A stretch of 64,000 nt of DNA from Cyanidioschyzon merolae (lineage: Eukaryota): assembly GCA_000091205.1 (NCBI GenBank), contig AP006500.2. One strand, written 5' to 3'. The translations under genes and the position numbers were made by a program. Below the pieces are notes generated by a model. It made no database searches and was not told where the DNA came from. It saw only the letters and a program-made list of their open reading frames with translations. The number at the start of each line of letters is the position of its first letter. Positions within the stretch are counted from its first letter, which is position 1. This document shows positions 720 through 63,312 of this stretch, piece by piece.

Positions 720-3700
720 TACGCGAGCCACCTTCCGAAGCTGCATCTTCGTCTCCCATGCCGATGACATGGAGATGGATCGGTGAATCGGCAGCGCATC
801 CGGGGGCCTTCAACCGCTCGCAGTGCGCTATCAAACAGAAACTGCGGATCACGCACGACGTGTTCGATTCATGTTTTCGTCGTGTATGCGATGTGGCGAC
901 GCTGCTATCGTGTCGTGACGCGTCTAACAGGAACGCGTGTCCAGTCGATGAAAGTTTCCGCATTGGGCAGAGCGCGCTGGCGGGCGATCTCCGTTGCATG
1001 ACCCTCGTTTGCACCGACTTGGTATACGGATCTGGATGCAACTGTTCGGCCATGCTTGATGCGGTGATTTCGATTCCCCATGCCCAGACTCGCGTTAATG
1101 AAGCGGGAAAGTGAGAACGCCTCTTTCCGGCAAATCGGCGGATGATTCCGGGAGAATGGAGTGAGACAGTTTTCCCTGGAGTGACCGTTGCGGGCAGTCG
1201 TTTGCAGGCCAACGTACGTGCTGTGCGAGTCCTCGTGGGCGTCGTTTTTTATCCTGATGAATCGAGGTGACGATATACTTCAGGTACTGGGGACAGCGAA
1301 TGTCAAGAGCACCTCGGCAGCAGCTGCTCTTGGACCATACTCGGTAGTTTCCAAAAACGGAACAATGATATCGTTCTCCAGTAGGCCTGGAAACCCGTTC
1401 GCGGTGTATGCGTACAGTGTACCAGCTCTGGTGGACTCCTGAATGGTACCATACGTGTGCCTCGTCCCAGGTGGGAACAAACGCCCGCCTGTACTAGGCA
1501 CAGATTTTTGCATCAAAAGTCTTCCTCGATTCAGCACAACGCACATTCGGGGTAGCAAACGATTCTCTCAAAGGTTCGCTCGATACAAAGCTTCTGGACG
1601 CTCCAATAGCGCGATTCATTTCCGCATGTTGATCGCGGCGCCCAAGTCTCGGTGCAGAAAGCGCCTGCGCGCATTGCGACTGGTATTAGAATCACGTCAT
1701 CGCAAACCTGTTACAAGCGATTGCCTCGCGAGCTGACGTTCGGTCAGCATACCGTATACCAACTCGGTCAACCGGCTCTGTTTCATTGTCTGCGTCTGGG
1801 CCTGCTTCAGCGAGAACCTGTGCTCGTGTTGCGTGTATGCCGTCCTCAGCGCATCGATGGGCATAGTACAGAATCGATTTCTCCATTCGTAATCGGCTCT
1901 CGTTGAAGATGCAAGCGTGCAGGCCCTGCGCGCTACAGCAAGTCTAGCGCGATGCACGGCCATAAAACTAGGCGGCTGGTCGGTCATAGCCCTTTCCAAC
2001 ACGTGGGAAAATGCTGGCGAATGAACGTATCATACCCCTGTACAACCGCAGCAGCTGGCGACCCCAGCGCGAACGCATGTACTCCTGCCAAAGATCGTCT
2101 GTGTGGGTCGTTCCGACGCTCGTGTACGATCTGAACGAACGGAATGTGGGATCCCTTCCTGTCCAATACGACGCTCAGTGCGTCAAGAATGGGGCCCCGG
2201 CGCTGTCACTCGGCGCGGTGGTGTGCCCGCTGACCACCATGACCATCATTATCACCACGCCCGATTCCCGATGATGCCGAACCCTGGAAAAATTAAGCAA
2301 CTTCATCTGCTTTTCGTAGAGGTATTTGGTGTCATCCTTTTGATAATGAGTCATTGCGATCACCATGATGTTTTCCAAAGCCCGGGTCGAAACTCATTCC
2401 CAAGTCTGGGACCTCATCCACCTCGCTGCGTGGAAAATGAGTATCGCTGCTGGACGCTGGCACGGAATTCACATGCTGCATGCAGATGATCACGCGGGAG
2501 GTCCCCGTGGTCGCTGTGAACTTCTATCCATATCCACGCTGTAAACGAGACGCCTCGGACGAGCTCCCGCGATGCACTTTGCAACCTTGTTCCAATAGTT
2601 CATACTCGCTTGCAGGGACGAGATGCTTCTTTGTCTTCTTTTTTCTTCACGAGTTGGAATGGGTTTGGTCGCTGTACTCTATTCTCGTTTCCTCCTTGGG
2701 ATTCAGACGGACTTGCTCCACGCTGAAACTGACACTAGCCTCTTCTATGTAAATATCCACTATTCCTCAAGAATCTTTTTGTCATGTTTTAAGCAGCGAG
2801 CGCGCTCACGGGCTGAAGCGCGCTTTCCGTCTCGTCCCAGCGTACAGGAAGAGGAGCAACAGAGCCGTTCAGGGCTGCTCAAGGCTGGGAGCCACTTGTC
2901 GATGAAGCTCAGTGGCACAGATGCGAGAGACTTGCCTATCGATCCGTGAGCATAGCCATAGCGGTTCACAACAATGAAGACGACTCCAACTGCATGGTGC
3001 CGGTGAGTATAGGCTTGTACGAAGACGAGCTCGACACGAATCACAACTGCCTTCTCATCGACTGCTATTAACCGCTGGAAAATGGGGTTTTCTAACAGAA
3101 GAGCAGAAGCGTATGGGATCGCAACACCTCGAGGAGTTCTTCAACGAAGGTTGCGATGTAGAGCGCTCCTGTCAGTTTGGCGACTTGTGGCCGACCATGC
3201 GACTGAATCGCACCCGGGGCTGACGATGACGTCACTGCCACTTGTCTCTATTTTACGACCTGCGATTTGTCGCTCTTTGAGAATCCAAATGCTGGTCTAC
3301 CATTGCTCCCGAATACAGTCTCAGCAGGCGAGACGAGCACCCGTTTCTCATGCGAGAGAGTTTTGCGGTTCCGTACGACATCGATCGTGCGCTGTTCAAC
3401 GCAAGACCATCGCTCAGAGAACCGCGCATTTCCCCCCAGTCCATCGGTGTCTCTTCATCACCGCTCGTATGACCAGGACGGAAATTTCACATCCTCTGGA
3501 TTGTTTCGTAGTATTTTATCTGAGAACATCTGGAACGGAATGGACTGTCGATGAGGAGGTCGTTTAATTAGAGTTTGATACGTTCGGTTTTGGGCACTCA
3601 TTGTTCAGGATACCGACCAATAGAGTGGTGATTCATTCACCTGCTGACCCTGGAATATCTGGCTCAGACCATTGCAACCCATTTTCCGAAAACGGCCTGT

Positions 3701-4031: not shown

Positions 4032-5339
4032 CTATCGGATTCGCGTGACGCTGCCAGAGACACGCAAGGTCGCAGCGAGTCTTGCGCGCGTAATCGCTCC
4101 AGCGCTCTCCTTACTCGCTCGCGAGGACCTGGTTTCAACTTCAGTGTTCGGCTGCTCGGGACGTAGATTCTCTGTACAGATGTCGAACGAGAGCAGGTTG
4201 CTGACGTCCTCCTTGATGAATATTTCAGTTTCGCTTGGTTCGACGCCGCCGAAACTCTGCGCAACCTCGCGTAGTCGCTCAGCTTTATCTTTCAGAGCGG
4301 GCAAACGATGGAGCAGTTCAGACATAAGTTTCCGTACCGTCTCAACGCGTTGGAGGACTTGCTCCTCAAGCGCTCGTTTTCTCCCGTCCGACAGTTCAGT
4401 ATCAGACTCATTGTCTGATACCAGGTCCTCGAACTGCGCGTTGGAGAATACTGCCTCGGCCTGTAACGCAGTCACCTGCTGGGCGAGTCGCTCGGCCTGT
4501 GCTCTGACCAACTGTTCGGCTGTGGCACAGCGTTCCGCTCGTAACCGCCGCAAGTATTTCTCCTTCTCAATAATAAGGGCCTCGAGCGTTTTCACTTTTC
4601 CACGAATCTCATTGTCTTCTTCTTCTTCCGGAAAGGACGCCTGAACTTGAGCGAAAACTACACAGTTCTTACGCAAGAGCTCTTCAAGGGCCGCAGCTGT
4701 CGCACGCAACTGTTCTCGTACCGCCTCGCGACGGCTTTCTGGAAGTAAGTAGCTTTCTCGAACGCTGGGTTGCAGTGCTTCATCAACAGCGTCATTAAAG
4801 CACTTTACTGCCTCGGTGATGACCGACTCGCTGGGCAGCACGACGTGAGGCTCTCGCAGGTAGGGCGCGGTCTCCATAAGCACCGGGTTCGTAGTCAGCG
4901 CCGGGAATTCAAATACGGCGTAGAGACCGCGCGCATCGCCTGCGCGTGCCGCACATCGCGATGCAGCGATGCAGCGATGCGAGGCGTCTGCACGAGCGCC
5001 ACGTACAGACGCGCCTAGCACCGCAAGCCTGGTGGACCTCTGTTCCCGCCACAACGACTTTTCTGGAGCCTGTTGAACGTCGTGAGCTTGGGAGAGGAGC
5101 GGAATTCTCTTCCCCGGGCTAGTGATCAGTATCGACGCTCCGGAGACTCTACTTGGATGGATCGGTCTCATACCAAAAGAATGCGCTGACGTTGCTTCGC
5201 GTGCAGTGCGCTGCAGTGGCGTGCCGCTGGACTGCTTCGATTGGCAGGCGCGTTCCGTGGATGCGCGTCCTGAAGAGGTCGCACGATCTGTCTTCTGGTT
5301 CTCGTGGAAATGCACATTTGGAACTGGTGGGACGCTCAC
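4032..5339 (-). CDS. hypothetical coiled-coil protein (no recognisable domain)
   Basis: 435-aa ORF with long heptad-like E/R/L/A-rich stretches (EEQVLQRVETVRKLMSELLHRLPALKDKAERLRE and similar) and an S/T-rich N-terminus. Supported by length only. The antisense ORFs 3605..4264 and 3877..4644 overlap it and are treated as spurious. Confidence 0.4.
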   Translation of the reverse strand: MSVPPVPNVHFHENQKTDRATSSGRASTERACQSKQSSGTPLQRTAREATSAHSFGMRPIHPSRVSGASILITSPGKRIPLLSQAHDVQQAPEKSLWREQRSTRLAVLGASVRGARADASHRCIAASRCAARAGDARGLYAVFEFPALTTNPVLMETAPYLREPHVVLPSESVITEAVKCFNDAVDEALQPSVRESYLLPESRREAVREQLRATAAALEELLRKNCVVFAQVQASFPEEEEDNEIRGKVKTLEALIIEKEKYLRRLRAERCATAEQLVRAQAERLAQQVTALQAEAVFSNAQFEDLVSDNESDTELSDGRKRALEEQVLQRVETVRKLMSELLHRLPALKDKAERLREVAQSFGGVEPSETEIFIKEDVSNLLSFDICTENLRPEQPNTEVETRSSRASKESAGAITRARLAATLRVSGSVTRIR

Positions 5340-6774
5340 TGTACTGTGGAGGAACTGAATCCACGTCTGTCGTGTTCAGCGGTGGTGCATCATCCAGAAG
5401 AGTCCGGTAAGGCTCACAGACTTTGCACCGAGAAAAATGGCGATGCGGGCTGCCAACGTGCCCTTGACGTTGTTTTCGGATGGATTTGTTTATCTGGAAT
5501 CACCGGAGTTCGCGAACGCCGCTGGCTGCGTTGATGTTTCATTCGCATACGGGTCCCGCAGACGTTGCTACGTTGTGCCAACTCCTGCGCTGTGCGCTCC
5601 TCACGAAATCGATATCCGATCGATCTAGTGACCCTGCGGGCACACCTGTATGAGGGAACCGATGCTTGATCGCCTCTTGAAGCATCACCCGCTTTAGATG
5701 TACAAAGGTAAACGTAACATGGGCCTCAAGTGTGCCACATGCGATGACCAGGTCTCCGTTGGGACATGATACATTGGCATTGTGACGCGCTTCTTGTCTT
5801 CTTACGATCTGCGGTTGTCTTCGAAATAAGAAGCAATGATCGTTGCTTTACATCTCCAGGTGGGTGCATAAAAGCTCGGGAGCATGACGTCTCATCGAAT
5901 CACAAAAGATCAGAGCCACCATCGTGGTTTCATCTCTCAAGAACTGAAGTCCGTGCATCCCGTTCTCGGTCCAAATACCATAAACACTCCGTTACTGAAA
6001 CGAGATCCTGATCTATCGCTAAAGAGAAGCTGAAGCGCCGTTTCAGATTCGGATGTTGGCGCGCTCGACTGCGTCTTCGCTCGCCCATACACTGCCCGGT
6101 AGAATGGGAGCTCGCAATGCAGCATGATATCGCATGAGGCGATTCGAGCTTTTTTGGAAAAAAGCAGCGTATCTCTTACGGGATCAAGACATGCGGCAGC
6201 GCATTCCTTCCGAGCTGACGGCGCTCGATCGCGTCAACCACGACTCTATTGACTTGTAGTAGCACCAACGCTCGGGCGGCTGATCGGGTTTAGCTGCTCC
6301 AAGGACGCCCGGGCGGTCGCTCGTGGCGTTCCAATAGTTCCCGTAGACAGAATTATCAAGCAGCGCTATCGTTTTAGAAGACGTTCTCCCAGCGTTCGAT
6401 CGTGAGTACATGTTCATGCGAAAAGCCGCCCAGCCGTCGGCCCGCTGCATCCCAAGAGCTCAATGCATGCGTGCGCCTGCGTTTCCGGGTAGGGTTCTTC
6501 CCTATATTTGTAGGTCTGTTCTGATTGATACATTAATGTGCAGATAACGGATTGCCCCAGTGACCCGTTCGCACTCGCGTCGTGTTCGCAACAAGGCTTG
6601 CGCGTAAAGCAGGTACTCGCTCCTCCTCAGTAAGCCGGATCGAGTCGGGCTCACCGAGTAGTAGACGCCAAAACGCCGTACTGCGACCGCTTTAGAGTTG
6701 GCTCTGGTATAGACTCCGCATTACCCGCAGAGATCCCGCTAGCACCTCTATCGGTAGGCACAGGCGCTTCAATT

Positions 6775-39643: not shown

Positions 39644-40117
39644 TCTGACGTCGGCAGAATCCGGAACGTCTCCAGAACGCGCCACTGGTACCCGTGGCGA
39701 CAACAGCGGCAGAGCAGGTGCGCTCTTGTGCAGACTGTTCAGTACCGCGGTCGCGATGCTACCGCTGGCGCTAGCCACAGGGTACCCATGTTCATTGAAT
39801 GGAATGAGGGCTTGCGGGCAGTCCTGGCGCCAACTGCCTGCAATCCGCAATGTCGGCTTCGTGCGCACGTATGTCACTTCATGTGCACGGCACGCATGCG
39901 GCCTATCGGCAGACGCGCGTTCTCTGTAGCGGCTCGCTGCCTCCGAAATCTAAAGCCCATGTTTTAGTTTACCTCAAATGATACATAGCTGTCGAGAATG
40001 CTGCGTACCGGAAACATCCAAGTACCTGGAGCGAAAGTCACGGAGCACGTCTTGCATCCCAGTGGCAACCTGGAAGCGTCAACTCCCAGGGGAAAAACCA
40101 CCACACGGGGCACACAC

Positions 40118-40400
40118 CATCACCGCCTTTCGAAAGTCGAACGGCAGCAGTGTACAGTAGTGGCGGCAACCGCGCCCTAGACGAAACGTCTCCAACCGAC
40201 GTGCAGACGCCTCCCGGTTTTTCTCGACCGAGCACCCACTACTGCTTCCAACTTCTTTTCATATAGTTCCACTTTGAAAGGTTATCCAATAAAGTTCTCT
40301 CTTGTCGACTCTGGAGGTCTCTTCTCCAGCACCGCACATTTCCTTATATTGATAGCGGCATTAAAGTCTCGGTTCACGAATTCCATCCGTTTCTTGCTAT
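40118..40400 (-). ncRNA. candidate omegaRNA / right-end region of the Fanzor-like element (prediction only)
   Basis: The ~164 nt non-coding stretch 3' of the stop (40118..40281) is about 85% identical to 54601..54786. Both copies end at the same point with catcacc, where similarity to flank ends. A subterminal hairpin ttcga-aag-tcgaa lies at 40124..40142; in the second copy it is cgttcga-aag-tcgaacg. In TnpB/Fanzor systems the guide RNA overlaps the ORF 3' end and reads through this terminus. Confidence 0.3.
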
Positions 40401-42540
40401 CACTTGTTGTACTAACCAATGCAAGTAGCCCTCGCACTTTTGCCCTCCTCTCCATTTGCTCCTCCGTCAGCGGTCCGTACTTTGCTATTTCCTCAGGATT
40501 CCGCTGGCACTTTTCCATCCCGACCCTTCGAAGTGTACACCCCAGCTCGTGGTGTGTATAGGACGTTCGGAACTCATCCACAGGTATCGTAAAGAGACGC
40601 CTTGCGCACTCTTTGTACGCTCTCGTCGTTGGAGCTGGCGTAGTTCCTTTTAGGGTCTTCCATCGCCCTGCACCGTACGCTACTACGAGCCTCTGATTTT
40701 CATTCTCCTTGAGCGCGCTCAACTGATTGAAAAAGTTGGCGAACGCCCGCTGCCTCCCACCGTATAGATGCATACACAGACGAGCCCACCGGGGCTTGGT
40801 ATACTCCTCCCACAGCGCATCCCAATGGGCAACACGAACTCCCATGGATTTCCGGAAAGCTTCAAAGTCGGCTCCTCGGCTCGTCACCTCGCTCAACGCT
40901 TCCAGGTGATCCTTCATTCCTGAATTCCAAGTCTCGATTTCCTTCCTCGCATTCATGATTGCCGATTCTCGATAGTATCTCGCTCTCGAGAATCTCAACA
41001 GACGCATATCTTTCTGACGTAAGTTGCCGTCAGTACCATCTTCCGCACGCTTCGGTGCTGCGACGGCTATAATATTCGTATTTCCAGGGTCCGCGCCAAC
41101 GATAAAGTCGTTATCCTGCACTTTCTGCTTCTCAGAGCCCGCCTTGTTGTTTTCTTCATGCTTCGTCGCGTCTACGACAAGGTCGTTATCCTGCACTTTC
41201 TGTGTGGCAGGATCCGCATCCTTCTCATCTCCATGCTTCGTCACGTCAACGATAAAGTCGTTATCCTCCACCTCCTGCGTCGCAGGACCCGCCCCTTTGT
41301 TTTCTTCATGCTTCGCCGCGTCAACGATAAGGTCGTTGTCCTGCACCTCCTGCATCACAGGATCCGCCTCCTTGTTTTCTTCATGCTTCGTCACGAGCGC
41401 AGCCAAGGGCGGAACTGGACGATCTTTCTTCAACCGCCAATAGCGTATACACAAGGCTACTCCATCGGTTTCGATCAACCCAATGAATACCTTCTTCTTG
41501 CTCACTTTGAGACGTTTGAAATCGAAGATGCTCATCCAGTACGTCTCCCGGTTTTCGCCGGTGAAGTCCTCCCTGCTAAAATCGAACTCGGGACTGATCT
41601 CCCTCATGACGCCATGAAGGATTCTGGAGTCGATAGTCACAAAATGTGACTTGATGTTGCCCAACGGAACCACGTTGAAGCGCTTCCCCATTAGGAAAGC
41701 CTTCCGTCTCTCCCACTCTTCATTTGTCTCTTCACTCAGCATCACCTCTGCCTTGCGTTCGATGTCACGATCCAGAAACACGAAATACCGCAGGACGAGG
41801 CGATAGTATCTTTCCTTCTCTTTTTTCAACGCTAATATCTTGTCTGTTGGATTCACCAGCCCCAGTCCCGCACGATCCTCTTGTATAACCGCACGGATCG
41901 TAGAGGCTTCATTGGTGCTCACCTTTGACGTCGTCTTGTCGACAAATTCGACCTCATCTTCACGCTTGCGATCTTTCATGATGCCATTGATAATCGCCCA
42001 TTTCCCATTGCGAGAGATGCCCGAGTAGAGTGCAATCACAGCGCGTCTCATGAAACGTTCGAGGTTCACTGTCAAATGGTTCTTCAGATTCGTGATGTAC
42101 TTCATGGGCCTATATGTGTAAATATCCCGGTCACCCTTGTATCGAGTACCATTGAGGCTGTAAAAGGGATGTTTTTCGTGGAAGACATCCACCCGCTCAT
42201 TTTCCTCCCGCGCTTCCTCTGTACCAAGCGTCAGCTGACGAATAAAAATCTTGTCGAAAAACACGTGTGGAATCTCGACCGTTTCGATGGGCGTCACGTC
42301 GCGATACATCTCCCTCTCCAAATGCATCAGTCCTGACGACGCCTTGAAAATACTCTTGGAGTACGAGTCCACACGTTTTTTGATAGCGTCTCGCAACTTT
42401 TCCTTGTAGGGATCCTTGATATGTCCAAGAAGAAAGGTTTTCACAACCATCTCGTCGTACAGTTGTCTTTCTTGCCGCCTTCGACGTAGGGTATCCCCCT
42501 TTCGGTTCTTCTTCTCTTCCTTTTCTTCTGGACTAGACAC
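40282..42540 (-). CDS. Fanzor-like protein (eukaryotic TnpB/OrfB homolog; putative RNA-guided RuvC endonuclease), intact 752-aa ORF
   Basis: RuvC-I-like [19 protein letters not shown] (Asp codon at about 41089..41091). C-terminal Zn-ribbon-like segment [20 protein letters not shown]. RuvC-III-like [10 protein letters not shown] (RDxNAAxNI-type; Asp at about 40366..40368). Basic NLS-like N-terminus [17 protein letters not shown]. The RuvC-II Glu is not at the canonical position ([10 protein letters not shown]), a rearrangement also reported for Fanzor1. Two further fragments of the same family occur in this window. Confidence 0.8.
41085..41385 (-). repeat. 4x tandem 75-bp in-frame repeat inside the Fanzor-like ORF
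   Basis: Protein repeats: [102 protein letters not shown]. The repeat is also obvious at nucleotide level (gtcaacgataaagtcgttatcctgcac...ttcttcatgcttcg). The last unit carries the real RuvC-I motif. Confidence 0.85.
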
Positions 42541-42739
42541 TGTTTTTTGTTTTTTCTGGCAGCCAGCGACACTGGGCCTCCAGGATCGTCGATTTGCTTT
42601 TTCATAACTTTCCTTTTTTTAGTTTTTTTGGAAAAGAACGCTCCCTCAACGCCTCTGATATAAACAGCGAAAGAAAACTTGAAAAAACTAAACTGAGGGT
42701 TGAAATATAACTGAACTGAAAAGTATACTCTGCTGTGAC

Positions 42740-44137
42740 TTTAACGCAAATACAACGTGCACTTGAGAGCAACACGCTCAAGATCGCGATCCCGTTTCCC
42801 TTCAACAACGACATGCGCGTCGTATTTCATGCCTCCCAGATATGGAGGTGCGCGTATCGACCGCGATGCCCCCTGGCACTCGGACGTGAACTCCAAATAC
42901 CCTCAATAGAAGCATTAGCAGCAGGCTGCCGGGCACGCATATGGGCCAAAGGGCCCGCCATGCGCACCTGGTTCAGTCGGATTTTCATGCAGACCCCAAC
43001 GCACCGCAAGAACTCTTGGACGAAATCGACGCAGATTTGGCTGAAGCGCCTCTTAGGCGAAAACATTCTCCCCAATCGTTCCCCAGAAATATAGAAGGCT
43101 CCCGCCGCCTGAAGCGAACGGTCCAAACAACAGTACGGGAATGTAGACATGCAGTCAGTCGCGCGAGTAACGCCGGCTTGACTCTATACCGGAACTACAG
43201 CCTAGCCTGTTCATGCACGTACTGGTGGGAGGCGCTGGAGTTCACGGGACTTGCTCGAGGTACACAGTGGCTCGCCAAAATCCGCGTTGGTGGCTTCTGG
43301 CTACCAGCACCGGCTCTAAGCCGTATAGGAACACTGGAATCGCACTGGGAATCACACTGTCCCTGCTATCGAGACGAAATCCCCGAGACCCTGACATATG
43401 TAGGCGTACAGTGCCCGCGCTGGAAGCAGGAGCGCAGCGAGCTCCTTGAAGGACAGCAGCAGCTGGGCATCACCGTGATAGTCGAAGGCCGGACACTCAC
43501 TCTGAGTGTAGCACTGGCAACTGATGGTCCGCTAACCGAGCATCAGCGCTCATCAATGGCGAACAAACGCATATGCTACCTTCTAGGTGGAAGATCCAGC
43601 GGATCGGATGCGCACACGGGCTCAGTGCGCTCTCTGCGCCTACCTTCTGTGGTAGGTTTCAAGCACAAACCCGCATTGCCAACCGACAACAACGCATTCC
43701 ATGCATGATCACGAAGGAGAGAGGCGGCTCCCAGGATATATCCTAACAGCCAAGTTTCTCCAGCGTGTCGTGCAGCGAAGGCAAGCCTGCATCCGCAGAC
43801 TGTCCAAGCACAAACTGACGACGAGGCCCGATTCTACTTCAGGTGAAGTACGCCTCGAGCCGATGCCCTCTGGGGTATAGAAAAGCAGTTCTAGCTCTAT
43901 GAACTATCTGATCCAGCGGTACAGGTCCAAAGGTGGATACGGAAAGGCAGGTACTAGGCACACTCGATAGGACGTATGAAACGACCAGAACATCCGAGAT
44001 GAAGTATATGTACTGTAACTTGGAGGTAGGGTGTTTGATAGATACCTCACCGCGCTCTGAAAAAATATAAAGTAAGAAAAGAAAAATGCGCATAATCGGA
44101 GAACGCTGGCCCAAGTAAACGTCTTGTCAATGAAAAA
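42740..44137 (+). mobile_element. 5'-truncated LINE-like element; 3' UTR ends in a short A-run at about 44125..44131
   Basis: The ORF2 C-terminal fragment is followed by a ~430-bp 3' region. Its last ~250 bp (43880..44137) are found again, inverted, at 54845..55045 (catcaaacgccctacctccaag and tttttcttttcttac blocks), as expected for independent 5'-truncated copies. Confidence 0.5.
42941..43708 (+). pseudogene. non-LTR retrotransposon (LINE) ORF2 C-terminal fragment
   Basis: Contains the cysteine-rich C-terminal motif typical of LINE ORF2: HCPCYRDEIPETLTYVGVQCPRWKQERSEL (C-x-C...E-T...C-P...R). There is no RT core upstream in frame, so it is 5' truncated or frameshifted. Confidence 0.5.
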
Positions 44138-44181
44138 AACCCGCGCCGCCTGGCCGAGATTCATTGATTTTAGTCAGGGCG

Positions 44182-45612
44182 CTACTCGTATCGATAGGTT
44201 CGCTGTAGACGCTCGTGGAGCACCTGCGCTGCGGTGCGCGCGTTCAGTTCATCAACTATGGTTTCATCTAGCGGATGCACGAAGAGCGCTACGGAGAAGC
44301 GTTCTGCCGAATAACGAGCACCGCCTGGGCGGCCTGACAGTTTGGTTGCGTCGTTGCGTGCCGTCTGCTCCGGGCGAGCCACAACGCGGTGCTTTGTTGA
44401 TGAGATCCTGCCTCTGGTCCAGATGGAGAGTACGTCACCTGCATTAAACACGAGTCCCGGGGCACGCGTTGGATCGTGCTCAATGTCCACCCAGTGATCT
44501 CCGATCTTGAGCTGGAGACCACCAACTTCATCCTGGTAAAGCAGGGTGAACGTGCCATAGTCACTATGTGCTCCGGCGAGTACGATTTCGGAGGTTCTCT
44601 CGTTTGAGGTACCGCATGTTGCATGTGGCACCTGTGTTAGCGGAACTGGTGGGTAATGCAGCAGCCTCAGCGTCGTGGCGAGCACGGAGGGTGCTTTGTT
44701 TTCTTCGGGAGGGCCGCGCTCTCCCCGAGCGATGCCTGGTGGTAGCATAGCGCAGTCCAAGGCCAGATTCCGGGAGTCGCTATCCGAAATCTCTCGTATT
44801 TCGCAACCCCGATCAATGGTAGTATGTCCAGCTAGAGCAGGTTGTTTCATGCAGACTCGCAGGTCCGGCGAGACGGTGCCTTTGCTCGTTTGCGTCCGCG
44901 TCTCACGATCGCCTCCTGGCGCTGCCGGAATTTGTTCTTGACACGTCGAAAGCCGCATCATTTCCCCACGCTCCAGCGAACAGCGGGCACCAGCGTCAGG
45001 TGAGTGCTCATGCACCTTCATCAAGGGTGCTGCACTCCGAGCGCCTGTGTCCTCGGAACGCGTGCATCGCGACAAGTCGGGACAGGCGCAACGGTGCTCG
45101 GGTGTATGTCCAGCAGCAAGGTCTACGAATGCATGCGCCCTGCAAAACACCGTAGCAATGGGACCGCAGCCATGTCGCTCAAGCGCTGTGCCCAATCGTT
45201 GCACGAGAAGTGGTACTAACCTACGCAGAACAACACGATCGAAAGCGCGTTTCGCTGAAAGCAGACTGTGCGACAGCGATGCCTCCAACGGCTCGACTCG
45301 TGCCCCGTAGACGAAGTTCAGCGCTTCCTTTGGATCCGAGAGACCCGACTCGGGTGCCAGTGCTTCCACACCAACAGCTACGTATCCCGCGTTAGGAGCC
45401 AACCAGTTGCCGCGAGCGAGTTTGCTCCTGTCCGCTGCTGTTAGTTGACGAAAAAATTCTCGTGCCGCGTCAAGCACACTTTGAAACGCTTCGGTATATA
45501 CGGTCTCATCAGCGACAATATATGCAAAGCCCACTCCCTGTAACGCCTCGTACAAAGATGCACCACTCACGTCTCGCTCTACGTTGACTAGCGGAAGCCG
45601 GAGCTGCATCAA
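44182..45612 (-). CDS. 2-oxoglutarate/Fe(II)-dependent oxygenase (isopenicillin-N-synthase-like superfamily) with a long internal low-complexity insertion
   Basis: DIOX_N-like N-terminus (GFAYIVADETVY...REFFRQLTAADRSKLARG). 2OG-FeII_Oxy core GAHSDYGTFTLLYQDEVGGLQLKIGDHWVDIEHDPTRAPGLVFNAGDVLSIWTRGRISSTKHRVV with the HxD...H...RxS pattern. Confidence 0.8.
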   Translation of the reverse strand: MMQLRLPLVNVERDVSGASLYEALQGVGFAYIVADETVYTEAFQSVLDAAREFFRQLTAADRSKLARGNWLAPNAGYVAVGVEALAPESGLSDPKEALNFVYGARVEPLEASLSHSLLSAKRAFDRVVLRRLVPLLVQRLGTALERHGCGPIATVFCRAHAFVDLAAGHTPEHRCACPDLSRCTRSEDTGARSAAPLMKVHEHSPDAGARCSLERGEMMRLSTCQEQIPAAPGGDRETRTQTSKGTVSPDLRVCMKQPALAGHTTIDRGCEIREISDSDSRNLALDCAMLPPGIARGERGPPEENKAPSVLATTLRLLHYPPVPLTQVPHATCGTSNERTSEIVLAGAHSDYGTFTLLYQDEVGGLQLKIGDHWVDIEHDPTRAPGLVFNAGDVLSIWTRGRISSTKHRVVARPEQTARNDATKLSGRPGGARYSAERFSVALFVHPLDETIVDELNARTAAQVLHERLQRTYRYE

Positions 45613-48504
45613 CAGCCGACCCGTAAACTCGTACCTGTCGTTGTCTTGCTGGGTATTGCGTAGAGCAGCGCGTGCCTCTCAGTCGCAACCTCTACACCTC
45701 TATACCTGTGGCCAGATCGGCGACACCAAAAACTCTCTCTGAAGCAGCTTTCAGGTGCTGCTTAAGCCTCCGTCCAGCGAATCGCGGCTGTGGAGCCTTT
45801 CGAGCACCAATTCTCATTGACGGAATCTCTGAATGAGATATATCGCTACAGTGCCAACGTTTGCGCACTCGCGTAGCGCTGTGTGCAGCTTGGCTTGCAG
45901 GTGAGGGTGCAGGTTTGTGTGCGTTTCCTTCGCTACGTCAAGGTAGTTGGTGTGTTGTATTTTGGAGAATACAAAAGCCATTGTGCTCTGCAGCTGGTGA
46001 GGATCGAAGCACTTCACCAGCTGGCACTCGTACAACGACTTTTTCCCACAGCATTTGTCGTGTTCCAAGAAAAGCTCTCGTGTACTTATAGACTACAGCA
46101 GCTGCGACTTTGGCGTGCTACAAGTTCGCAGTGCTGTGAGCACTCTTCGTGCTAACCCCGACTGGTGCGATTTCCGTAGAAAGCAGCGCTCGCACTCGCG
46201 TCTTGCGTGGCCGGGAAACGCATTCGTATGTCTTTGGACTGGCCGCCTGATATCCAGTTGTACCGCCACTTAGCCGCTCAGTCTGGTGTTCTTCTAGGGG
46301 ACTACATCTTGCTGCGGTTGCAAATTCAGGAAAGCAGCGGCTTTCTGGGTCGTGATCCGCACGCCGAACAAACTGTTGAAGAGGCGGTGCATCTGTGGGA
46401 GCGCTTGGAGAAATCCGTCGTGCTCTTGGGCCAGATAGTCGACAACGTTCATGGGGAAAGCACTCTGAAAGAGTCCCTGGTATTGGATCTTCGCAGCAAA
46501 CACAGTATTCTTGTCAACCTGAACCGTCTCTGGGACGATCCGCACCCTCAAGAGTGTGCACGGGTTCTACTGGAAGCGTGGAGCGGCTCCCTGTGGCTCG
46601 ATCCCGTCGCGAGCATTCTCTCTTCGTATCGTAGTTTGGTTGAGTCTGCCGACCGCGTATCTACGCCGCAGCGTTCAAAACGCCTAACCGCACCAACAAC
46701 ACCTTCTGCGAGAGCATCGGCATCCGACCTGAATGATTCGTCGAAACAGGCACCGCTGTGGAGTTACCTCCTGGACGACCATGGAACACGTCGTCGATCT
46801 GGCTCTCGAGCGCACCGGCCTTAAAACATCGTCGGCGTGAGAGAAGCAAAAGGTTGAGCGGCTCAAAAGCATCGAATCTGGTGGACACTTGCGCATTCAC
46901 TTCCCACAGTATGCGTTTGCATGCCGCAGGCGCCGCTGCAACAGTCAGAACTCGCATTTTTGCAGCCGCGTAATCGCTTCCATTTGGCGAATCCAACTTG
47001 ATTGTACCGGAAACCGGCACAGACCTGATTAGACCAGTGAACCTTGAAGATATCGTTCGTCGGAAGCCAGCATTTGCATCGCGATTCGTGTGGGAATGTG
47101 TTTGCTCATTCGCTGGCTCGATCATTCCAGTTAGAACAACGGCAACGACAACAACAGAAGTAGCCCCTGGCTTCTCATGGTATTGGTGATGGCAACGCAG
47201 ACACCGGATGCCGAGCTGCTTTCGCGCACAGTGTTCGTCGAAACGTGTTCCCTCGGCAACGGGACGACAAACGTCGTATCCCCAGGATGGTTGGAGCGTG
47301 ATGTCAGACTTACACGTTTCGTGCACAACTATGGTTTCCACAAAACAGCCCCCAGAACGAAGCAGAAGCCCTCGTCGATTCCGACTGCTCGCGCCTCTCC
47401 AATCGTCTGGTCGATGTGAACCCCACGTGTCACATCAAGATCCATGATATCGCAGGAGGCTCGTCTGCACTGTACGAGACGGCCTCCTCTGTGAGCTACC
47501 GCTGATCTCTGGGAACGAGTAGAACGCGTTCGAACAACATCGCGATAACGAGTAGCGGAGCTCGTTCCAAGCTGCTCGTATATAACGAAGAAATGCAAAG
47601 CAGTTTACGCGGACGAGAGAGTCCCGCGGAGTATCGGTCTGGATGCACTGTGTGTAAACGAGGACACATATCCAAGAGTCGTGCAGCGATGCTCATTTCC
47701 AACCGTTCAACGTAGGTCATGAGAGAGGCTTCGTGAGGCGCGTGAATCTCGCTTTGCAAGGCGTCATCGCTGTCGAAGCACTTCCACATCAGGAAGATGG
47801 AGCCAAATACCTAAACGGAAACCAGATGAAGCTGTTCGACTCTCACAGGCTCTGCTTCATCGAGAGTCGAACGTGATGATCGCCAGGATCGTTACGAAAA
47901 TGGAATAAAAGCGTTAGTGCCCGTCTTATCGTTCCAAGCGTCCTGTCGAGCAGCAAGGAAACGCGCTGCGCGCAACATTCAAAGCAAACATGAGCGTCCT
48001 AATGACTCAGACCGACGATTCCTGGGAAGCGTACATGAGGCTGCGCTGCTGTCGCCAACATATTCGGTCTCACGGAGGCAAGAGGCATGCATTCGCTAAC
48101 ATGCTCAATGATGCGGTTCACGACTTGTTCGGCAACCTATAACAGGGCGAAGTTCTCGCGACCGATGGGATGGCAAGCTGTGCGTCGCGCCAGTGGGGCA
48201 TGGCGTCCAAGCAACTGGGACCCATAGAATGTGCTTCGAATCTTGCACAGTATCAATGGAAAAACAGAAGCGCTTCATGAATCAGTCAGCAAAGGAGTAC
48301 CGCATTCGGATCTCCTCGCATCAGAATCGACTCCTTTCACCCCGCACACCAGTGAAACCCTGCGGTGCAGTGCTCGGGACTTAGCCGAGCCAGAAACCCC
48401 AACTCTTTGCTGTAAGACCTCACTGGCAATGTGCATATGCTGCATCTTGCGGGTCTCTGCATGATGCCGTCCCCGATACATGGAACAGATTGGTTAGCTT
48501 CTCT

Positions 48505-60292: not shown

Positions 60293-60640
60293 TTGATTTT
60301 CAAAATTAAAGACCCTAAGGCATGCGCCGAGTGTACAGTTCAGAACATCGTTATGGAGAGCAGGCAGCGGAGTGCTGAGGACATAGAAAAGCACGGAGAG
60401 CTGCCGGAGCACCAAACGGCACAGAGGGCGCGAGTTCTTGGACTCCTCGCACTGACCAGTTCAACCAATCGCAAGAAACACATTGAGTTCATGAACTGAG
60501 ACTTTACCGCCGCCATCAATATCAGGAGATGTGCGGCACTGAAGAAGAGACCCGCGGAGCTGATGCGAGCCAGCCTTGTCGGACAACCTCTCAGTGTCGA
60601 GGTGTATAGGAAAAAGCTGAGGCTGATAACAGACAGCCGG
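60293..60640 (+). pseudogene. diverged, frameshifted C-terminal fragment of a second Fanzor-like gene (copy 3)
   Basis: CAECTVQNIVMESRQRSAEDIEKHGELPEHQTAQRARVLGLLALTSSTNRKKHIEFMN is about 50% identical to the copy-1 segment [57 protein letters not shown]. After a stop and frameshift the RuvC-III box reappears as DFTAAINIRRCAAL. The downstream block gggaggcgtctgcaagtcgg matches the copy-1 non-coding block gggaggcgtctgcacgtcgg. Confidence 0.55.
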
Positions 60641-60741
60641 TCGAAAAAAAGCTGGGAGGCGTCTGCAAGTCGGTGTATGTATGTGCTCTATGATCGCGAA
60701 ACGTTTTATGCCCACCGAGAGGAGTAACGCAGCGTGACTGC

Positions 60742-63312
60742 ATGCGTGCAATGCGTAAAGCAACCGCTTCGCCGCAATCCTTCCATGCCCCACTTTCAAA
60801 ACAGATTCTTGTTGTTCTTATTCGAGGAAGCACTTTGGATCAAACATGCATGGGTGAAAGAGAGTCATATGCTTCGTCTGTACGACGTTGCTTTCACGGG
60901 GAGCCTGCAACTCGGCGACAAGTCTTGAAGCCTGGTTCGAATACGGGTCGCTTCTTTTGGGCCTGTGCTCGCACACTCCGCTCCGGACAGCGTTGCGCGT
61001 ACTTCGTCTGGGACAGCCACTCGGGTGTGTACGAAACAGTTCAGGCTGCGGATGGTGCACGTACGAGCCTTGGAGACCAGGTCCAAGCGGACCCGACAAG
61101 TAAGAAACTGGAGAGCACACGAGGGCGTGTGCCAGGAGCGGCGTCATCACGCACCTGCGGAAGCGGGCCGTTCTGGGAGGCCCTGCGAAACACCAAGCGC
61201 AGTGGAACGTCCCAAGATCAGTTGCCGCAGTTTTCATTGAGCAGTGATCCGCAAGCAGGCAGCGCAGCAATACGCGCTGGCAGTGGGCTGGAGAAGAGGC
61301 CGAGCAAGGAACGCGCCGGCACGCAGTGGCTAGTCGAGATCGGGGACGGAGAACATTTTCACCTCTGGCCTCAGAAGAATAGCGAGGCAAACGCATATAT
61401 GCTTTTTCAGCTTGCGCAGCGAGTTCCGGGTGCAGTGCTGGAACCCTCGAAGGAACGCCTTCGGATACCATTGTCTTCCTGGACTGCAACCTCTGCAGCT
61501 GTCGCAGCGCTTGAGGGAAGCATCCGTGGCCATCCACCGCAGCGGTTGATGCAAAACCTGGTGAATCTTCGCCGTCGGTTGGAGGACCGAAATGGGGAAA
61601 AACAATGCTTCGCGGAGGTCTTGGCCCATGCTCGCGCGTCCTTGGCGTCGATTCAGCTCTGGGAGCAGTTGCTACCTTTTCAACGGACTGGCGTTGAGCG
61701 CGCGATTGTCCAAGGCGGGCGCGTCCTTCTAGCCGATGAAATGGGCCTCGGAAAAACCATCCAAGCAATTGCCATCGCGTGGGTTTTGCGAAAGGACTGG
61801 CCGGTGCTCATTGTTTGTCCAAGTTCACTGCGAGGCGCCTGGTGTCGCGAGTGGAGAGACCGGTTAGCGGGCGCCTCGCTGACACCCTCCGATATTCATG
61901 TTCTGGAGACGGCCACCGACGCGGGAAAACCTCTTCGTGCGGTCAACATCGTGTCGTACGATTTGGTGGGCCGACTTGCCGACGCGCAGCTCCAGCGCGT
62001 CGGTGTCCTGATCCTCGACGAGAGCCATTATATCAAATCAGTGGATGCCAAACGGACACAATTCCTCTTGCCTTGGCTGAAACGGATACCGCGTGTGCTG
62101 CTGCTCACCGGCACCCCGGCGCTATCGCGACCGGCAGAGCTGTTCACGCAGCTACATGGTCTGGCGCCGTCCATATTTAGTGACTGGAAAGAGTTCGCGT
62201 ATCGGTATTGCGGTGCCCGAAGTACTCCGTGGAAAGCCTTGGACACGTCTGGCGCTACCAACCTGTCCGAACTTCATCGCATCTTGACGCAAACCGTTAT
62301 GATTCGCCGTCTCAAGGCGGAGATCCTGGATCAGCTGCCTCGGAAGGAACGCGGGGTCGCGTACGTGGAGCCTGCAGCGTCCACTCCAGAGCAGTTGCAT
62401 GCCGTGCTAGACGAACTCGCGGCGACTGAGCAGAAAGCTAGCACCGGCGATCAACAAGCAGCGAGCAAGGTGAAGGCGCTCATGAGCAAGGCATTCCACC
62501 TGACCGCTGTAGCCAAAGTGCCAGCCGTGCTGGCCCAGTGTGCAGACATTTGGCGAACTGGACACAAATTTTTGCTTTTTGCCTATCACGAACTCATGCT
62601 CGACGCTGTGGAAGGATGGCTACGCGAACAACAAGGTACCTGGATACGGATCGATGGCAAGACACAAGTTACAGAGCGCCAGGCGCTAGTGGATCGGTTC
62701 CAAGATGATCCTCAATGCCGTGTAGCGCTCTTGGCGTTGACAGCAGCCGGAGCTGGTCTCACGCTCACTGCAGCCCACGTGGTACTCTTTGCCGAGCTCT
62801 ACTGGAATCCAGGCACGCTGCGGCAAGCAGAGGATCGCGTTCACCGTATCGGCCAAAAGGAGTCGGTCTCTATCCGTTACCTGATCCTGCCTCGAAGCCT
62901 TGATGATCGCATGTGGCGATCCGTCCAGAACAAGCTCGATATCTTGCATTCATCCCTGGACGGTAAAATCGATCGCGAACGAGTCAATGTGGTGGCTGGA
63001 TCAGCCTGGAATGCCCCAGAGCCAGGCCCATTGGATCGTTTCTTCAAGCGTCGTAGCCAAGGAGTGGTGTCGTCCCCGGAACCAGGTGCAGATGAGCCCA
63101 CAAGCGTACGGAGCTCTTCCGTACCAGATGCATTCGAACAAGATCACGTCCCAGTGATCGAGTCGTTCGAACCAGAGGAACCACCGGAAATTCCGTCGTC
63201 TTTCTTGAATAGTGAGCTGGGCTCGGGATCAAACCGAACGCAATTTCAGCGAGAGGCACGGAAAAGGACCTTTCAGGAAATTGAGCCGAATAACGCTCTA
63301 CCTAGTTCTTAA
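60742..63312 (+). CDS. SNF2-family ATPase, SMARCAL1/HARP-like annealing helicase, with N-terminal GRF-type zinc finger
   Basis: GRF zinc-finger segment CFHGEPATRRQVLKPGSNTGRFFWACARTLRSGQRCAYFVWD. HARP-like segment WLVEIGDGEHFHLWPQ. Helicase motifs LLPFQRTGVERAIVQGGRVLLADEMGLGKTIQAIAI, LILDESHYIKS, LLLTGTPALSRP, FAELYWNPGTLRQAEDRVHRIGQ. Acidic/S-rich C-terminal tail. Confidence 0.85.
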   Translation: MRAMRKATASPQSFHAPLSKQILVVLIRGSTLDQTCMGERESYASSVRRCFHGEPATRRQVLKPGSNTGRFFWACARTLRSGQRCAYFVWDSHSGVYETVQAADGARTSLGDQVQADPTSKKLESTRGRVPGAASSRTCGSGPFWEALRNTKRSGTSQDQLPQFSLSSDPQAGSAAIRAGSGLEKRPSKERAGTQWLVEIGDGEHFHLWPQKNSEANAYMLFQLAQRVPGAVLEPSKERLRIPLSSWTATSAAVAALEGSIRGHPPQRLMQNLVNLRRRLEDRNGEKQCFAEVLAHARASLASIQLWEQLLPFQRTGVERAIVQGGRVLLADEMGLGKTIQAIAIAWVLRKDWPVLIVCPSSLRGAWCREWRDRLAGASLTPSDIHVLETATDAGKPLRAVNIVSYDLVGRLADAQLQRVGVLILDESHYIKSVDAKRTQFLLPWLKRIPRVLLLTGTPALSRPAELFTQLHGLAPSIFSDWKEFAYRYCGARSTPWKALDTSGATNLSELHRILTQTVMIRRLKAEILDQLPRKERGVAYVEPAASTPEQLHAVLDELAATEQKASTGDQQAASKVKALMSKAFHLTAVAKVPAVLAQCADIWRTGHKFLLFAYHELMLDAVEGWLREQQGTWIRIDGKTQVTERQALVDRFQDDPQCRVALLALTAAGAGLTLTAAHVVLFAELYWNPGTLRQAEDRVHRIGQKESVSIRYLILPRSLDDRMWRSVQNKLDILHSSLDGKIDRERVNVVAGSAWNAPEPGPLDRFFKRRSQGVVSSPEPGADEPTSVRSSSVPDAFEQDHVPVIESFEPEEPPEIPSSFLNSELGSGSNRTQFQREARKRTFQEIEPNNALPSS

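Follow-up and report, generated by a model that had tools for sequence, protein, structure and literature searches.

A CMe-1A transposable element in the 64,000-nucleotide stretch of Cyanidioschyzon merolae DNA that we analysed (the window) encodes a nuclease in which a 25-residue unit is repeated four times next to the first catalytic motif. We conclude that this array is very probably a tolerated, slippage-driven coding minisatellite, situated in the hypervariable, disordered linker between the WED and RuvC-I segments of the old CMe-1A Fanzor1 protein. What appears to be a striking mutation at a catalytic motif would then be a neutral spacer, old and variable in length, in a family of transposon proteins known since 2013.

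The element and its family

The element is 2.76 kb long, which corresponds to the DNA common to the window and about 50 other copies; 50 distinct copies were found in related metagenomes. It consists of the Fanzor ORF and short non-coding ends, without a transposase gene, and no TIRs were seen in the end alignments of the copies. The flanks of the element contain exact matches to C. merolae 10D proteins. The 5' boundary is located 264 bp upstream of the ancestral ATG and 329 bp upstream of the listed GTG. With a consensus derived from 24 full copies the window copy shares 89-90% identity, and typical copies are separated from this consensus by a dS of about 0.2-0.3. The main features of the element and its ORF are as follows.

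40109..42869, minus strand: one copy of the CMe-1A Fanzor1 element, delimited by sharp blastn pile-up edges against 71 metagenome loci
40282..42540, minus strand: Fanzor1-type RuvC nuclease ORF, 752 codons as listed from GTG (ORF list, profile, Foldseek)
41449..41472, minus strand: ETDGVALC, the conserved last WED strands and upstream anchor of the variable linker (alignments with homologues, GtFz1 and SpuFz1)
41077..41097, minus strand: RuvC-I motif GADPGNT with catalytic Asp484 (D484 invariant in the alignment with distant homologues)
40561..40581, minus strand: RuvC-II motif VDEFRTS with catalytic Glu656 (alignment with homologues)
40345..40374, minus strand: RuvC-III motif with catalytic Asp725 (alignment with homologues)

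CMe-1A was described in 2013 as a Fanzor1-encoding element family of C. merolae (Bao & Jurka, Mob DNA 4:12; PMC3627910), about 3 kb long, multi-copy and old, with copies about 80% identical to the consensus and with a Fanzor1 ORF only. The window element has the same host, is likewise multi-copy, old and about 3 kb long with a sole Fanzor1 ORF, and here, too, a few copies keep long ORFs although they are only about 80% identical to the consensus. It almost certainly belongs to CMe-1A, an assignment based on the published description. One difference is that the boundary of the shared DNA is found here at 2.76 kb and not at ~3 kb; in other subfamilies the element may therefore reach further in the 5' direction. 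The 5' 635 bp of the Repbase CMe-1A consensus are common with TE-N2_CMe (PMC3627910). The internal 25-aa tandem array and its variation in copy number are not mentioned in the text of the CMe-1A paper (PMC3627910).

The nuclease

The preliminary description of the region had called the protein TnpB-like; profile and fold matches now place it more precisely, since they indicate that the ORF is a eukaryotic Fanzor1, i.e. a TnpB-like nuclease that would be expected, by family membership, to carry out RNA-guided cleavage. As a single sequence the ORF had no match in Pfam, NCBIfam or PDB searches, and a profile and a fold search were therefore needed for its identification. A second, word-indexed homology search with alignment found close relatives only, diverse relatives were drawn from a representative sequence library, and the precomputed family for the ORF, PF26935, is merely a DUF (DUF8286). 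The profile, made of the window protein and four distant homologues, matched SpuFz1 (8gkh; E=1.5e-9, profile positions 274-631) and GtFz1 (9cer; E=3.7e-4), and the match spans the WED strand, the linker and the GxDPG junction. The AF2 model, of moderate quality (mean pLDDT 62.9, pTM 0.44), has only Fanzor1 proteins as its seven best Foldseek matches in the PDB (SpuFz, GtFz and PpFz; probability 1.0, TM by target 0.39-0.66), with Cas12 variants ranking after them.

The RuvC triad of the motifs GxDPG, DE[FY]RTS and NRDxNAAxNI is present as D484, E656 and D725, which are invariant in the homologue alignment. The AF2 model places the WED strands at residues 352-358 and 361-367. In Fanzor1 a C4 zinc-finger TNB domain is expected between RuvC-II and RuvC-III. 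The window protein contains THHELGC...EKC, and at the position of the second Cys pair it has RGLLALVST where distant homologues read RGLLWCxST; the Pfam TNB model gave a weak match (E=0.23) with the 99%-identical allele protein P0001 and none with the window ORF.

The repeat array

The four 75-bp in-frame repeats that the preliminary description had noticed are real, and they are arranged head-to-tail without indels. Tandem Repeats Finder (TRF) reports a period of 75 with 4.0 copies, 79% matches, 0% indels and a score of 378 at window positions 41092-41392. At a lag of 75 the best 225-nt stretch is 79.6% identical, as opposed to 39.4% +/- 1.1% (maximum 43.1%) in 300 codon-shuffled ORFs. In the protein register of ORF 40282-42540 the units are positioned as follows.

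41089..41388, minus strand: four tandem 75-bp (25-aa) in-frame units, residues 385-484 (TRF, unit coordinates, shuffle test)
41314-41388, minus strand: unit 1, residues 385-409
41239-41313, minus strand: unit 2, residues 410-434
41164-41238, minus strand: unit 3, residues 435-459
41089-41163, minus strand: unit 4, residues 460-484

The repeat adjoins the catalytic motif of RuvC-I, and the duplication covers the first half of this motif's beta-strand. The final six residues of unit 4, FIVGAD, are the RuvC-I strand, and it is the last unit that leads into GADPGNT with the catalytic Asp484; the upstream units keep DND(F/L)(I/V)VD without the DPG, which agrees with what had been seen earlier. Pairwise DNA identity among the four units is 72-87%. 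The period-150 row of TRF might suggest a duplicated or alternating block of two units, but the unit identity matrix does not support this because units 1 and 2 are the closest pair. An identical four-unit array was found at the same locus in two independent metagenome assemblies (L001 and L002; about 99.5% identity).

Unit number across the copies

Among the 50 distinct copies, nine have one unit, 14 have two, eight have three, 12 have four, four have five and three have six, i.e. 41 of the 50 contain 2-6 units. The array is ancestral, because the nearest neighbour of 140 of the 145 units is found in another copy and mostly belongs to the same position class. The same holds for the window copy, where the units are 87-93% identical to units in other copies but only 72-87% among themselves, and all three strain alleles of the window locus have four units. 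One unit is present in the deep branches and in relatives with 52-53% identity, and none in more distant Fanzors. The age of the array is evident from these comparisons, which suggest that it arose early in the C. merolae lineage and was inherited at different lengths via transposition.

The arrays were carried through transposition, because the same array of 2, 3 or 6 units recurs in sister copies that sit at different loci. Other sister copies differ by one or two units, and the unit number is scattered over the copy tree. At single loci the array length appears to be still changing at the DNA level in dead copies: the same-locus pseudogenes L014 and L015 (5 vs 3 units) and L023 and L024 (4 vs 3 units) differ by whole, nearly identical units, even though some length differences within a locus could come from near-identical units that collapsed in short-read assembly. 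Near-identical, recent duplications are also found elsewhere, in units 1-2 of L006 and of L023 (96%) and in L014, which has three near-identical units. Two further allelic differences in unit number were discarded, L018/L062 as a chimeric or different copy and L057/L065 as a truncation at a contig end.

Predicted disorder, charge and constraint of the linker

The repeat is predicted to be a disordered, near-neutral spacer, in line with the flexible linker that the preliminary description had listed among its options. Modelling the structure had been proposed as a check on disorder in the extra units, and in the AF2 model residues 343-471 are coil, with pLDDT values under 50, and strand 479-484 is still predicted with confidence; a confused alignment in the repeat may account for part of its low pLDDT, and the neighbouring WED strands (343-384) are low too. 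The charge-hydropathy value also puts the repeat on the disordered side (H 0.373 vs the boundary at 0.469). The position itself is hypervariable: the distance from TDG to the catalytic Asp has a median of 39 aa, an interquartile range of 35-46 and a maximum of 142 aa in 125 diverse Fanzor1 representatives, and the WED-to-RuvC linker of the window protein has 126 aa.

The repeat has a net charge of -16 over 103 aa, on a body of +31. Nearly all units are acidic, with a mean charge of -5.1 per unit, and most of the 145 units still show the motifs K-[HD]-E-E..K-E-A.P..Q.V.D-N-D. The net charge of the linker ranges from -16 to +11 in the 125 representatives. The dN/dS is 0.85-1.28 in the units, a noisy estimate as it comes from 75-nt units compared with the consensus, vs 0.26-0.54 (about 0.35) in the rest of the ORF. 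The kept acidity could reflect selection on composition that dN/dS misses. The body of the protein has the same dN/dS (about 0.3-0.4) in multi-unit and in single-unit copies, which argues for protein-level selection in the multi-unit lineages. From these comparisons we infer that multi-unit proteins were probably functional and that 2-6 units may be tolerated by a working nuclease.

State of the window copy

The window copy is the best-preserved of the copies and the closest to intact. Its lesions, an N-terminal frameshift and a C-terminal stop, lie outside the array.

42603..42605, minus strand: ancestral initiator ATG (MKKQIDDPGG...), now in a different frame from the body (consensus ORF, three-frame translations)
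42550..42555, minus strand: A-run, A6 where the family consensus has A7, a 1-nt frameshift (sequence vs consensus, three-frame translations)
40282..40284, minus strand: premature TAA, mostly CAA (Gln) in the other aligned copies (alignment column ~66, consensus C-terminus)
40109..40281, minus strand: element 3' end, with the remnant of the ancestral C-terminal coding sequence and ~65 nt of terminal non-coding DNA, conserved in 22 copies

The A6 frameshift cuts the ATG and the first ~18 codons from the main ORF and is common to the alleles L001 and L002; the first in-frame ATG of the listed ORF is codon 30. The premature TAA is also common to two strain alleles, and the ancestral frame beyond it has ~35 further codons (PFKVELYEKKLEAVVGARSRKTGRRLHVGWRRFV, then a stop). 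The three alleles of the locus show 10 non-synonymous vs 1 synonymous substitutions, and L002 contains a nonsense codon. We considered the window ORF as a single intact, possibly selected or domesticated copy; however, its dN/dS vs the consensus (0.36) equals that of the pseudogenes, and the frameshift after the ATG, the premature stop, the substitution ratio of the alleles and the nonsense codon also speak against it. A stop-codon reassignment or RIP-like mutation behind the in-frame stops seemed unlikely as well, since frameshifts accompany the stops and the host genes read normally.

A putative Fanzor omega-RNA would be expected at the 3' end of the element. The consensus has a short terminal palindrome here (CGTTCGA-CTT-TCGAACG), and the terminal 240 nt on the 3' side show conservation in 22 copies. 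The search for an omega-RNA in this 3' end gave no covariation (RNAalifold on the 22 copies, 0 compensatory pairs) and no Rfam match.

Possible explanations of the array

We infer that whole 25-residue units were gained and lost by slippage, i.e. that replication slippage or unequal recombination would act between the 75-bp units, with the reading frame kept because 75 is a multiple of three. By chance the register of the repeat extends into the RuvC-I strand and takes in its first half (DNDFVV-G/D-A), ending one residue before the catalytic Asp, so that the DPG follows the last unit only, and only this unit would become part of the RuvC fold. The upstream units would loop out as an acidic, unstructured spacer, and the array, present early in the algal lineage and then transposed at different lengths, would be selectively near neutral. 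A slippage that recently expanded one unit to four in the window copy only, as the preliminary description had also considered, is refuted for this array: tandem coding repeats do commonly originate so, and a few other copies (L006, L023 and L014) have very recent duplications, but the window units are closer to their counterparts in different copies than to each other, the strain alleles share the same four units, and the other copies, far from being single-unit, mostly have several, the opposite of the outcome that the preliminary description had named as the sign of a copy-specific slippage. It is very hard to believe that the units were mis-joined or mis-counted in the assembly. Tandem repeats are liable to collapse or expansion and some metagenome pairs differ by whole units; however, the window agrees with the finished C. 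merolae 10D chromosome context, the divergence between the units is large enough for unambiguous assembly, and the array is not an artefact because the L001 and L002 assemblies both carry the four units.

The preliminary description had also raised the possibility of a regulatory or inactivating change, which finds no support here. As an inactivating lesion, the pseudo-strands (DNDFIVD) would compete with the true RuvC-I strand or push the WED-RuvC junction out of place. The duplicated segment indeed takes in half of a strand of the catalytic core, almost all copies are pseudogenes and non-synonymous changes predominate among the alleles of the window locus, but we regard this as quite improbable, as stops and frameshifts pseudogenise copies everywhere, single-unit ones included, different multi-unit arrays (2, 3 and 6 units) spread to new loci with the rest of the protein under purifying selection, and the model keeps the RuvC-I strand with the upstream units as coil. 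The acidic array could, on the other hand, be a selected functional module, e.g. an intramolecular nucleic-acid mimic or a length-tunable tether that would control how DNA or omega-RNA reaches the neighbouring RuvC site, or a docking site for a host factor. Negative charge has been kept beside the active site of a strongly basic protein, the motifs have remained recognisable, the array has persisted long while the body was under purifying selection, and a precedent exists in the cyclophilin-binding FRI insertion, which is lineage-specific, in the Fanzor1 PpFz1 (PMC11423790). However, the unit dN/dS is about 1, the unit number is scattered over the tree and still changes in dead copies, the linkers of other Fanzor1s are mostly short and equally often basic and acidic, the region lacks predicted structure, and shared ancestry of about 80%-identical DNA would yield the same conservation of motifs, so a functional module seems unlikely to us. 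A more specific version, in which the units are a selected, length-tunable module, e.g. a tethered DNA/RNA mimic setting the threshold for loading of substrate or omega-RNA, is a speculation with only a slim chance of being right; if it were true, the activity of the transposon nuclease would be tuned in evolution through the unit number, as by a rheostat, in an extremophile alga.

Comparison with known systems

It is instructive to compare the window protein with the Fanzor1s of solved structure (SpuFz1 8gkh, GtFz1 9cer and PpFz1 9cf0; PMC10432273, PMC11423790). They have the same fold and the same domain order (REC/WED, RuvC D-E-D and TNB, the last putative in the window protein), and in them, too, a variable linker leads from the final WED strands to the strand with GxDPG. 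However, identity to the window protein is 12-14% only, and its length (752 aa as listed, about 809 aa in the ancestral form) exceeds the usual 600-700 aa of Fanzor1, the excess being the repeat. In the window protein the CxxC-type TNB cysteines appear to be partly replaced. The FRI (Fanzor RuvC insertion) of PpFz1 resembles the array in being a lineage-specific addition of ~100 aa near or in the RuvC of a Fanzor1, but it consists of folded helices and sheets inside RuvC and binds cyclophilin (PMC11423790), whereas the array is tandem, predicted disordered, length-variable and placed before RuvC-I.

The natural variation suggests that insertions of 25 to about 150 residues were tolerated at the WED-to-RuvC-I junction in lineages with continuing selection on the protein, which makes this junction a candidate site for adding tags or effector domains. 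For the engineering of Fanzors this is of modest practical value. In addition, the about 50 diverse CMe-1A copies could be a source for reconstructing an ancestral, probably active, thermo- and acid-adapted Fanzor1.

The array also bears similarities to the coding minisatellites or VNTRs of IDRs (yeast, Arabidopsis, Borg repeats; PMC9879509, PMC10032594), as both consist of in-frame units, differ in copy number among paralogues and among alleles, are disordered and compositionally biased, and show relaxed constraint on their sequence. The array is made of head-to-tail 75-bp units, 1-6 per copy, whose number varies between paralogues as well as at the same locus. Unlike in those minisatellites, the repeat lies in a gene for a putative RNA-guided nuclease carried by a transposon, and its register extends over the first strand of the catalytic domain.

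Repeat array and protein identity

The repeat and the ORF of the Fanzor1-type nuclease that contains it are located in the window as follows:

40282-42540, minus strand: Fanzor ORF of 752 codons, from the ORF listing
41089-41388, minus strand: four 25-residue units, residues 385-484, in the protein register of the ORF

Tandem Repeats Finder detected a period of 75 with 4.0 copies, 79% matches and no indels at 41092-41392, and the units are 72-87% identical to each other at the DNA level. The identity at a lag of 75 is 79.6% over 225 nt, as opposed to a mean of 39.4% and a maximum of 43.1% in 300 codon-shuffled ORFs. Unit 4 terminates in FIVGAD, where D484 is the first RuvC catalytic residue and lies within GADPGNT. 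The upstream three units retain DND(L/F)(I/V)VD and then run into the next unit (KH...), i.e. the catalytic Asp and the PG are found in unit 4 only, which confirms the preliminary description in the protein register. The same four units are present in L001 and L002, two independent metagenome assemblies of this locus (~99.5% identical over 7-10 kb), so the assembly artefact considered earlier is excluded; the four in-frame 75-bp units are real.

The ORF gave no matches in Pfam, in NCBIfam or, as a single sequence, in the PDB. A profile built from an alignment of the window protein with four distant homologues matched the Fanzor1 proteins of Spizellomyces punctatus (8gkh, E=1.5e-9) and Guillardia theta (9cer, E=3.7e-4), the latter alignment spanning the conserved TDG-strand, the long linker and GCDPG. 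D484, E656 (VDEFRTS) and D725 ([10 protein letters not shown]) are invariant across the alignment. The seven best PDB matches of the AlphaFold2 model (mean pLDDT 62.9) are the three solved Fanzor1 proteins, with probability 1.0, followed by Cas12 variants. The TNB zinc-finger region (40400-40560, minus strand, residues ~661-714) shows signs of partial degeneration throughout the Cyanidioschyzon clade, with RGLLALVST in place of the RGLLWCxST of the distant homologues; an H-H-C-C-like set remains (THHELGC...EKC).

Unit number across copies

Units were counted on the DNA of every locus, independently of gene calls, and near-identical alleles were merged. The resulting 50 distinct copies carry one (9 copies), two (14), three (8), four (12), five (4) or six units (3), so the expansion is not specific to the window copy. 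One unit is present in relatives at 52-53% protein identity, and no recognisable unit is found in those at 33-46% identity, which have a short charged linker only. The nearest relative belongs to another copy for 140 of the 145 units, and in most cases it has the same position class (last-last 43, mid-mid 37, first-first 28), which indicates that the multi-unit array is older than the burst that produced these copies. Each window unit has an 87-93% identical counterpart in another copy. A recent slippage confined to the window copy is refuted by these counterparts together with the unit counts.

The tree of the copies is star-like and unit number is scattered over it. Sister copies at different loci share arrays of 2, 3 or 6 units, meaning that arrays of different lengths transposed; between other close sisters, unit number varies by one or two. 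Two loci differ between samples by whole, nearly identical units. L014 has five units (5112-5483) and L015 three (5112-5336), a difference of exactly two near-identical 75-bp units between flanks that are 99.1-99.4% identical on both sides, and this is either a true VNTR polymorphism between strains or a short-read collapse. L023 has four units and L024 three; identity between them is 98.7% over the 3.3 kb downstream and drops to 91% over the 548 nt upstream. Since both are pairs of pseudogenes, array length is still changing in the DNA regardless of protein function, with the caveat that short reads can collapse identical units in such same-locus comparisons.

The repeat as a variable linker

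The AlphaFold2 model shows no secondary structure for residues 343-471, where pLDDT stays below 50, and the strand 479-484 (FIVGAD) is kept with moderate confidence. By charge and hydropathy, segment 376-478 falls clearly among disordered sequences (H 0.373, boundary 0.469), and it has a net charge of -16, as compared to +31 for the remainder of the protein; the mean per unit is -5.1. The dN/dS of the units against class consensuses is 0.85 (last), 0.89 (first) and 1.28 (middle), and 0.85 from nearest-neighbour pairs, while that of the ORF remainder is 0.26-0.54 in all 36 copies analysed. The Fanzor1-like family comprises 4147 representatives at E<=1e-3. In 125 diverse ones the distance from TDG to the catalytic Asp has a median of 39 aa (interquartile range 35-46, maximum 142) and linker net charge spans -16 to +11; the 126 aa of the window protein is the second longest, and long-period tandem units are confined to this lineage. 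The repeat thus enlarges a spacer that is variable family-wide.

The array is best explained as a minisatellite in a tolerant, disordered inter-domain linker, where slippage or unequal exchange would yield the units; the repeat register happens to cover the first half of the RuvC-I strand, leaving the catalytic DPG after the last unit only. Inactivation of the nuclease by the insertion is unlikely, because protein-level constraint does not differ between multi-unit and single-unit lineages, and the former have propagated. The conserved charge of the units might also suggest a functional acidic module, i.e. a nucleic-acid mimic, a tether or a partner-binding site, the last being comparable to the FRI insertion of PpFz1 (PMC11423790). 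As charge is conserved while sequence is not, we regard such a module as a minority possibility.

The element family and the protein class are already known, and disordered regions often contain coding VNTRs; our literature search found no report of this array, nor of tandem repeats at the Fanzor WED-RuvC junction. The practical interest is modest: judging from sequence, the array suggests that large insertions can be accommodated at this junction.

State of the window copy

Every other near-full-length locus is damaged by 1-10 in-frame stops, by frameshifts or by a combination of the two. The listed ORF of the window copy is free of such lesions internally, but the copy is not entirely intact. 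Relative to the consensus ORF (MKKQVDDPGG...[19 protein letters not shown]...), one base is missing from the A-run at 42550-42555, so that the ATG at 42603-42605 is no longer in frame. This run, ~18 codons past the Fanzor ATG, differs in length between copies (A6, A7, A8 and longer); together with the homologous positions it forms a second site prone to slippage, at which frameshifts arise repeatedly. The ORF stops at a TAA where other aligned copies mostly have CAA, and ~35 more codons are readable in frame past it. The C-terminal loss may be harmless to the protein, as the SpuFz1 alignment stops at the position equivalent to the last residues of the window protein. The frameshift and the premature TAA are both shared with L001 and L002. 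The three alleles differ by 11 substitutions, 10 non-synonymous and one synonymous; the former include Q472* within unit 4 of the hot-spring allele L002 (CAG to TAG at L002 2185-2187, ~41125-41127 in the window), which means that one strain has already lost the intact ORF. The dN/dS of the window copy against the consensus is 0.36, no lower than in pseudogenes. These uniformly low values mean that most divergence accumulated in functional lineages, whose copies became defective at a later stage, in agreement with the long-lasting coding capacity of CMe-1A remarked by Bao and Jurka (PMC3627910).

Host and element

Flanking ORFs exactly match the C. merolae 10D proteins BAM82328, BAM82335, BAM82340, BAM82341 and BAM82342 (CMR locus tags), so the window is nuclear DNA of Cyanidioschyzon merolae, an intron-poor red alga; the RAD51 ORF shares a 90% cluster with BAM82331. 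The DNA common to the window and 71 related metagenome loci breaks off sharply at ~40109 and ~42869 (2.76 kb) and contains the Fanzor ORF as its sole ORF. The window copy is 89-90% identical to a consensus built here from 24 full copies. CMe-1A was described in this genome as a Fanzor1 family of ~150 copies, each ~80% identical to its consensus, ~3 kb long and without TIRs, with intact ORFs in some copies (Bao and Jurka 2013, PMC3627910).

Further fragments are found in the window. The segment 54610-54837 (minus strand) corresponds to the final ~233 nt of the CMe-1A consensus (90% identity); it represents either a copy truncated at the 5' side or a 3' end on its own, where an omega-RNA would be encoded. 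Another 3'-part fragment (60331-60674, plus strand; 74% identical, 53% aa identity to residues 668-752) lies directly upstream of an SNF2/GRF-zinc-finger helicase ORF (60742-63312). Weak tblastn matches to the RuvC half at 1571-2372 (minus strand) and 47834-48109 (plus strand), with 30-38% aa identity, could be what is left in this genome of a second Fanzor lineage that is more divergent. A separate repeated segment at ~43800-44200, common to up to 15 metagenome loci, is situated between the 5' end of the element and a 2OG-Fe(II) oxygenase gene, and could represent a different C. merolae repeat, e.g. TE-N2_CMe, which was connected to the CMe-1A 5' end by Bao and Jurka (PMC3627910). The 5' end is adjoined by an ATG-initiated ORF of 255 aa (42941-43708, plus strand) without a Pfam match, which is also called as a gene on a metagenome contig (L001 8832-9599).
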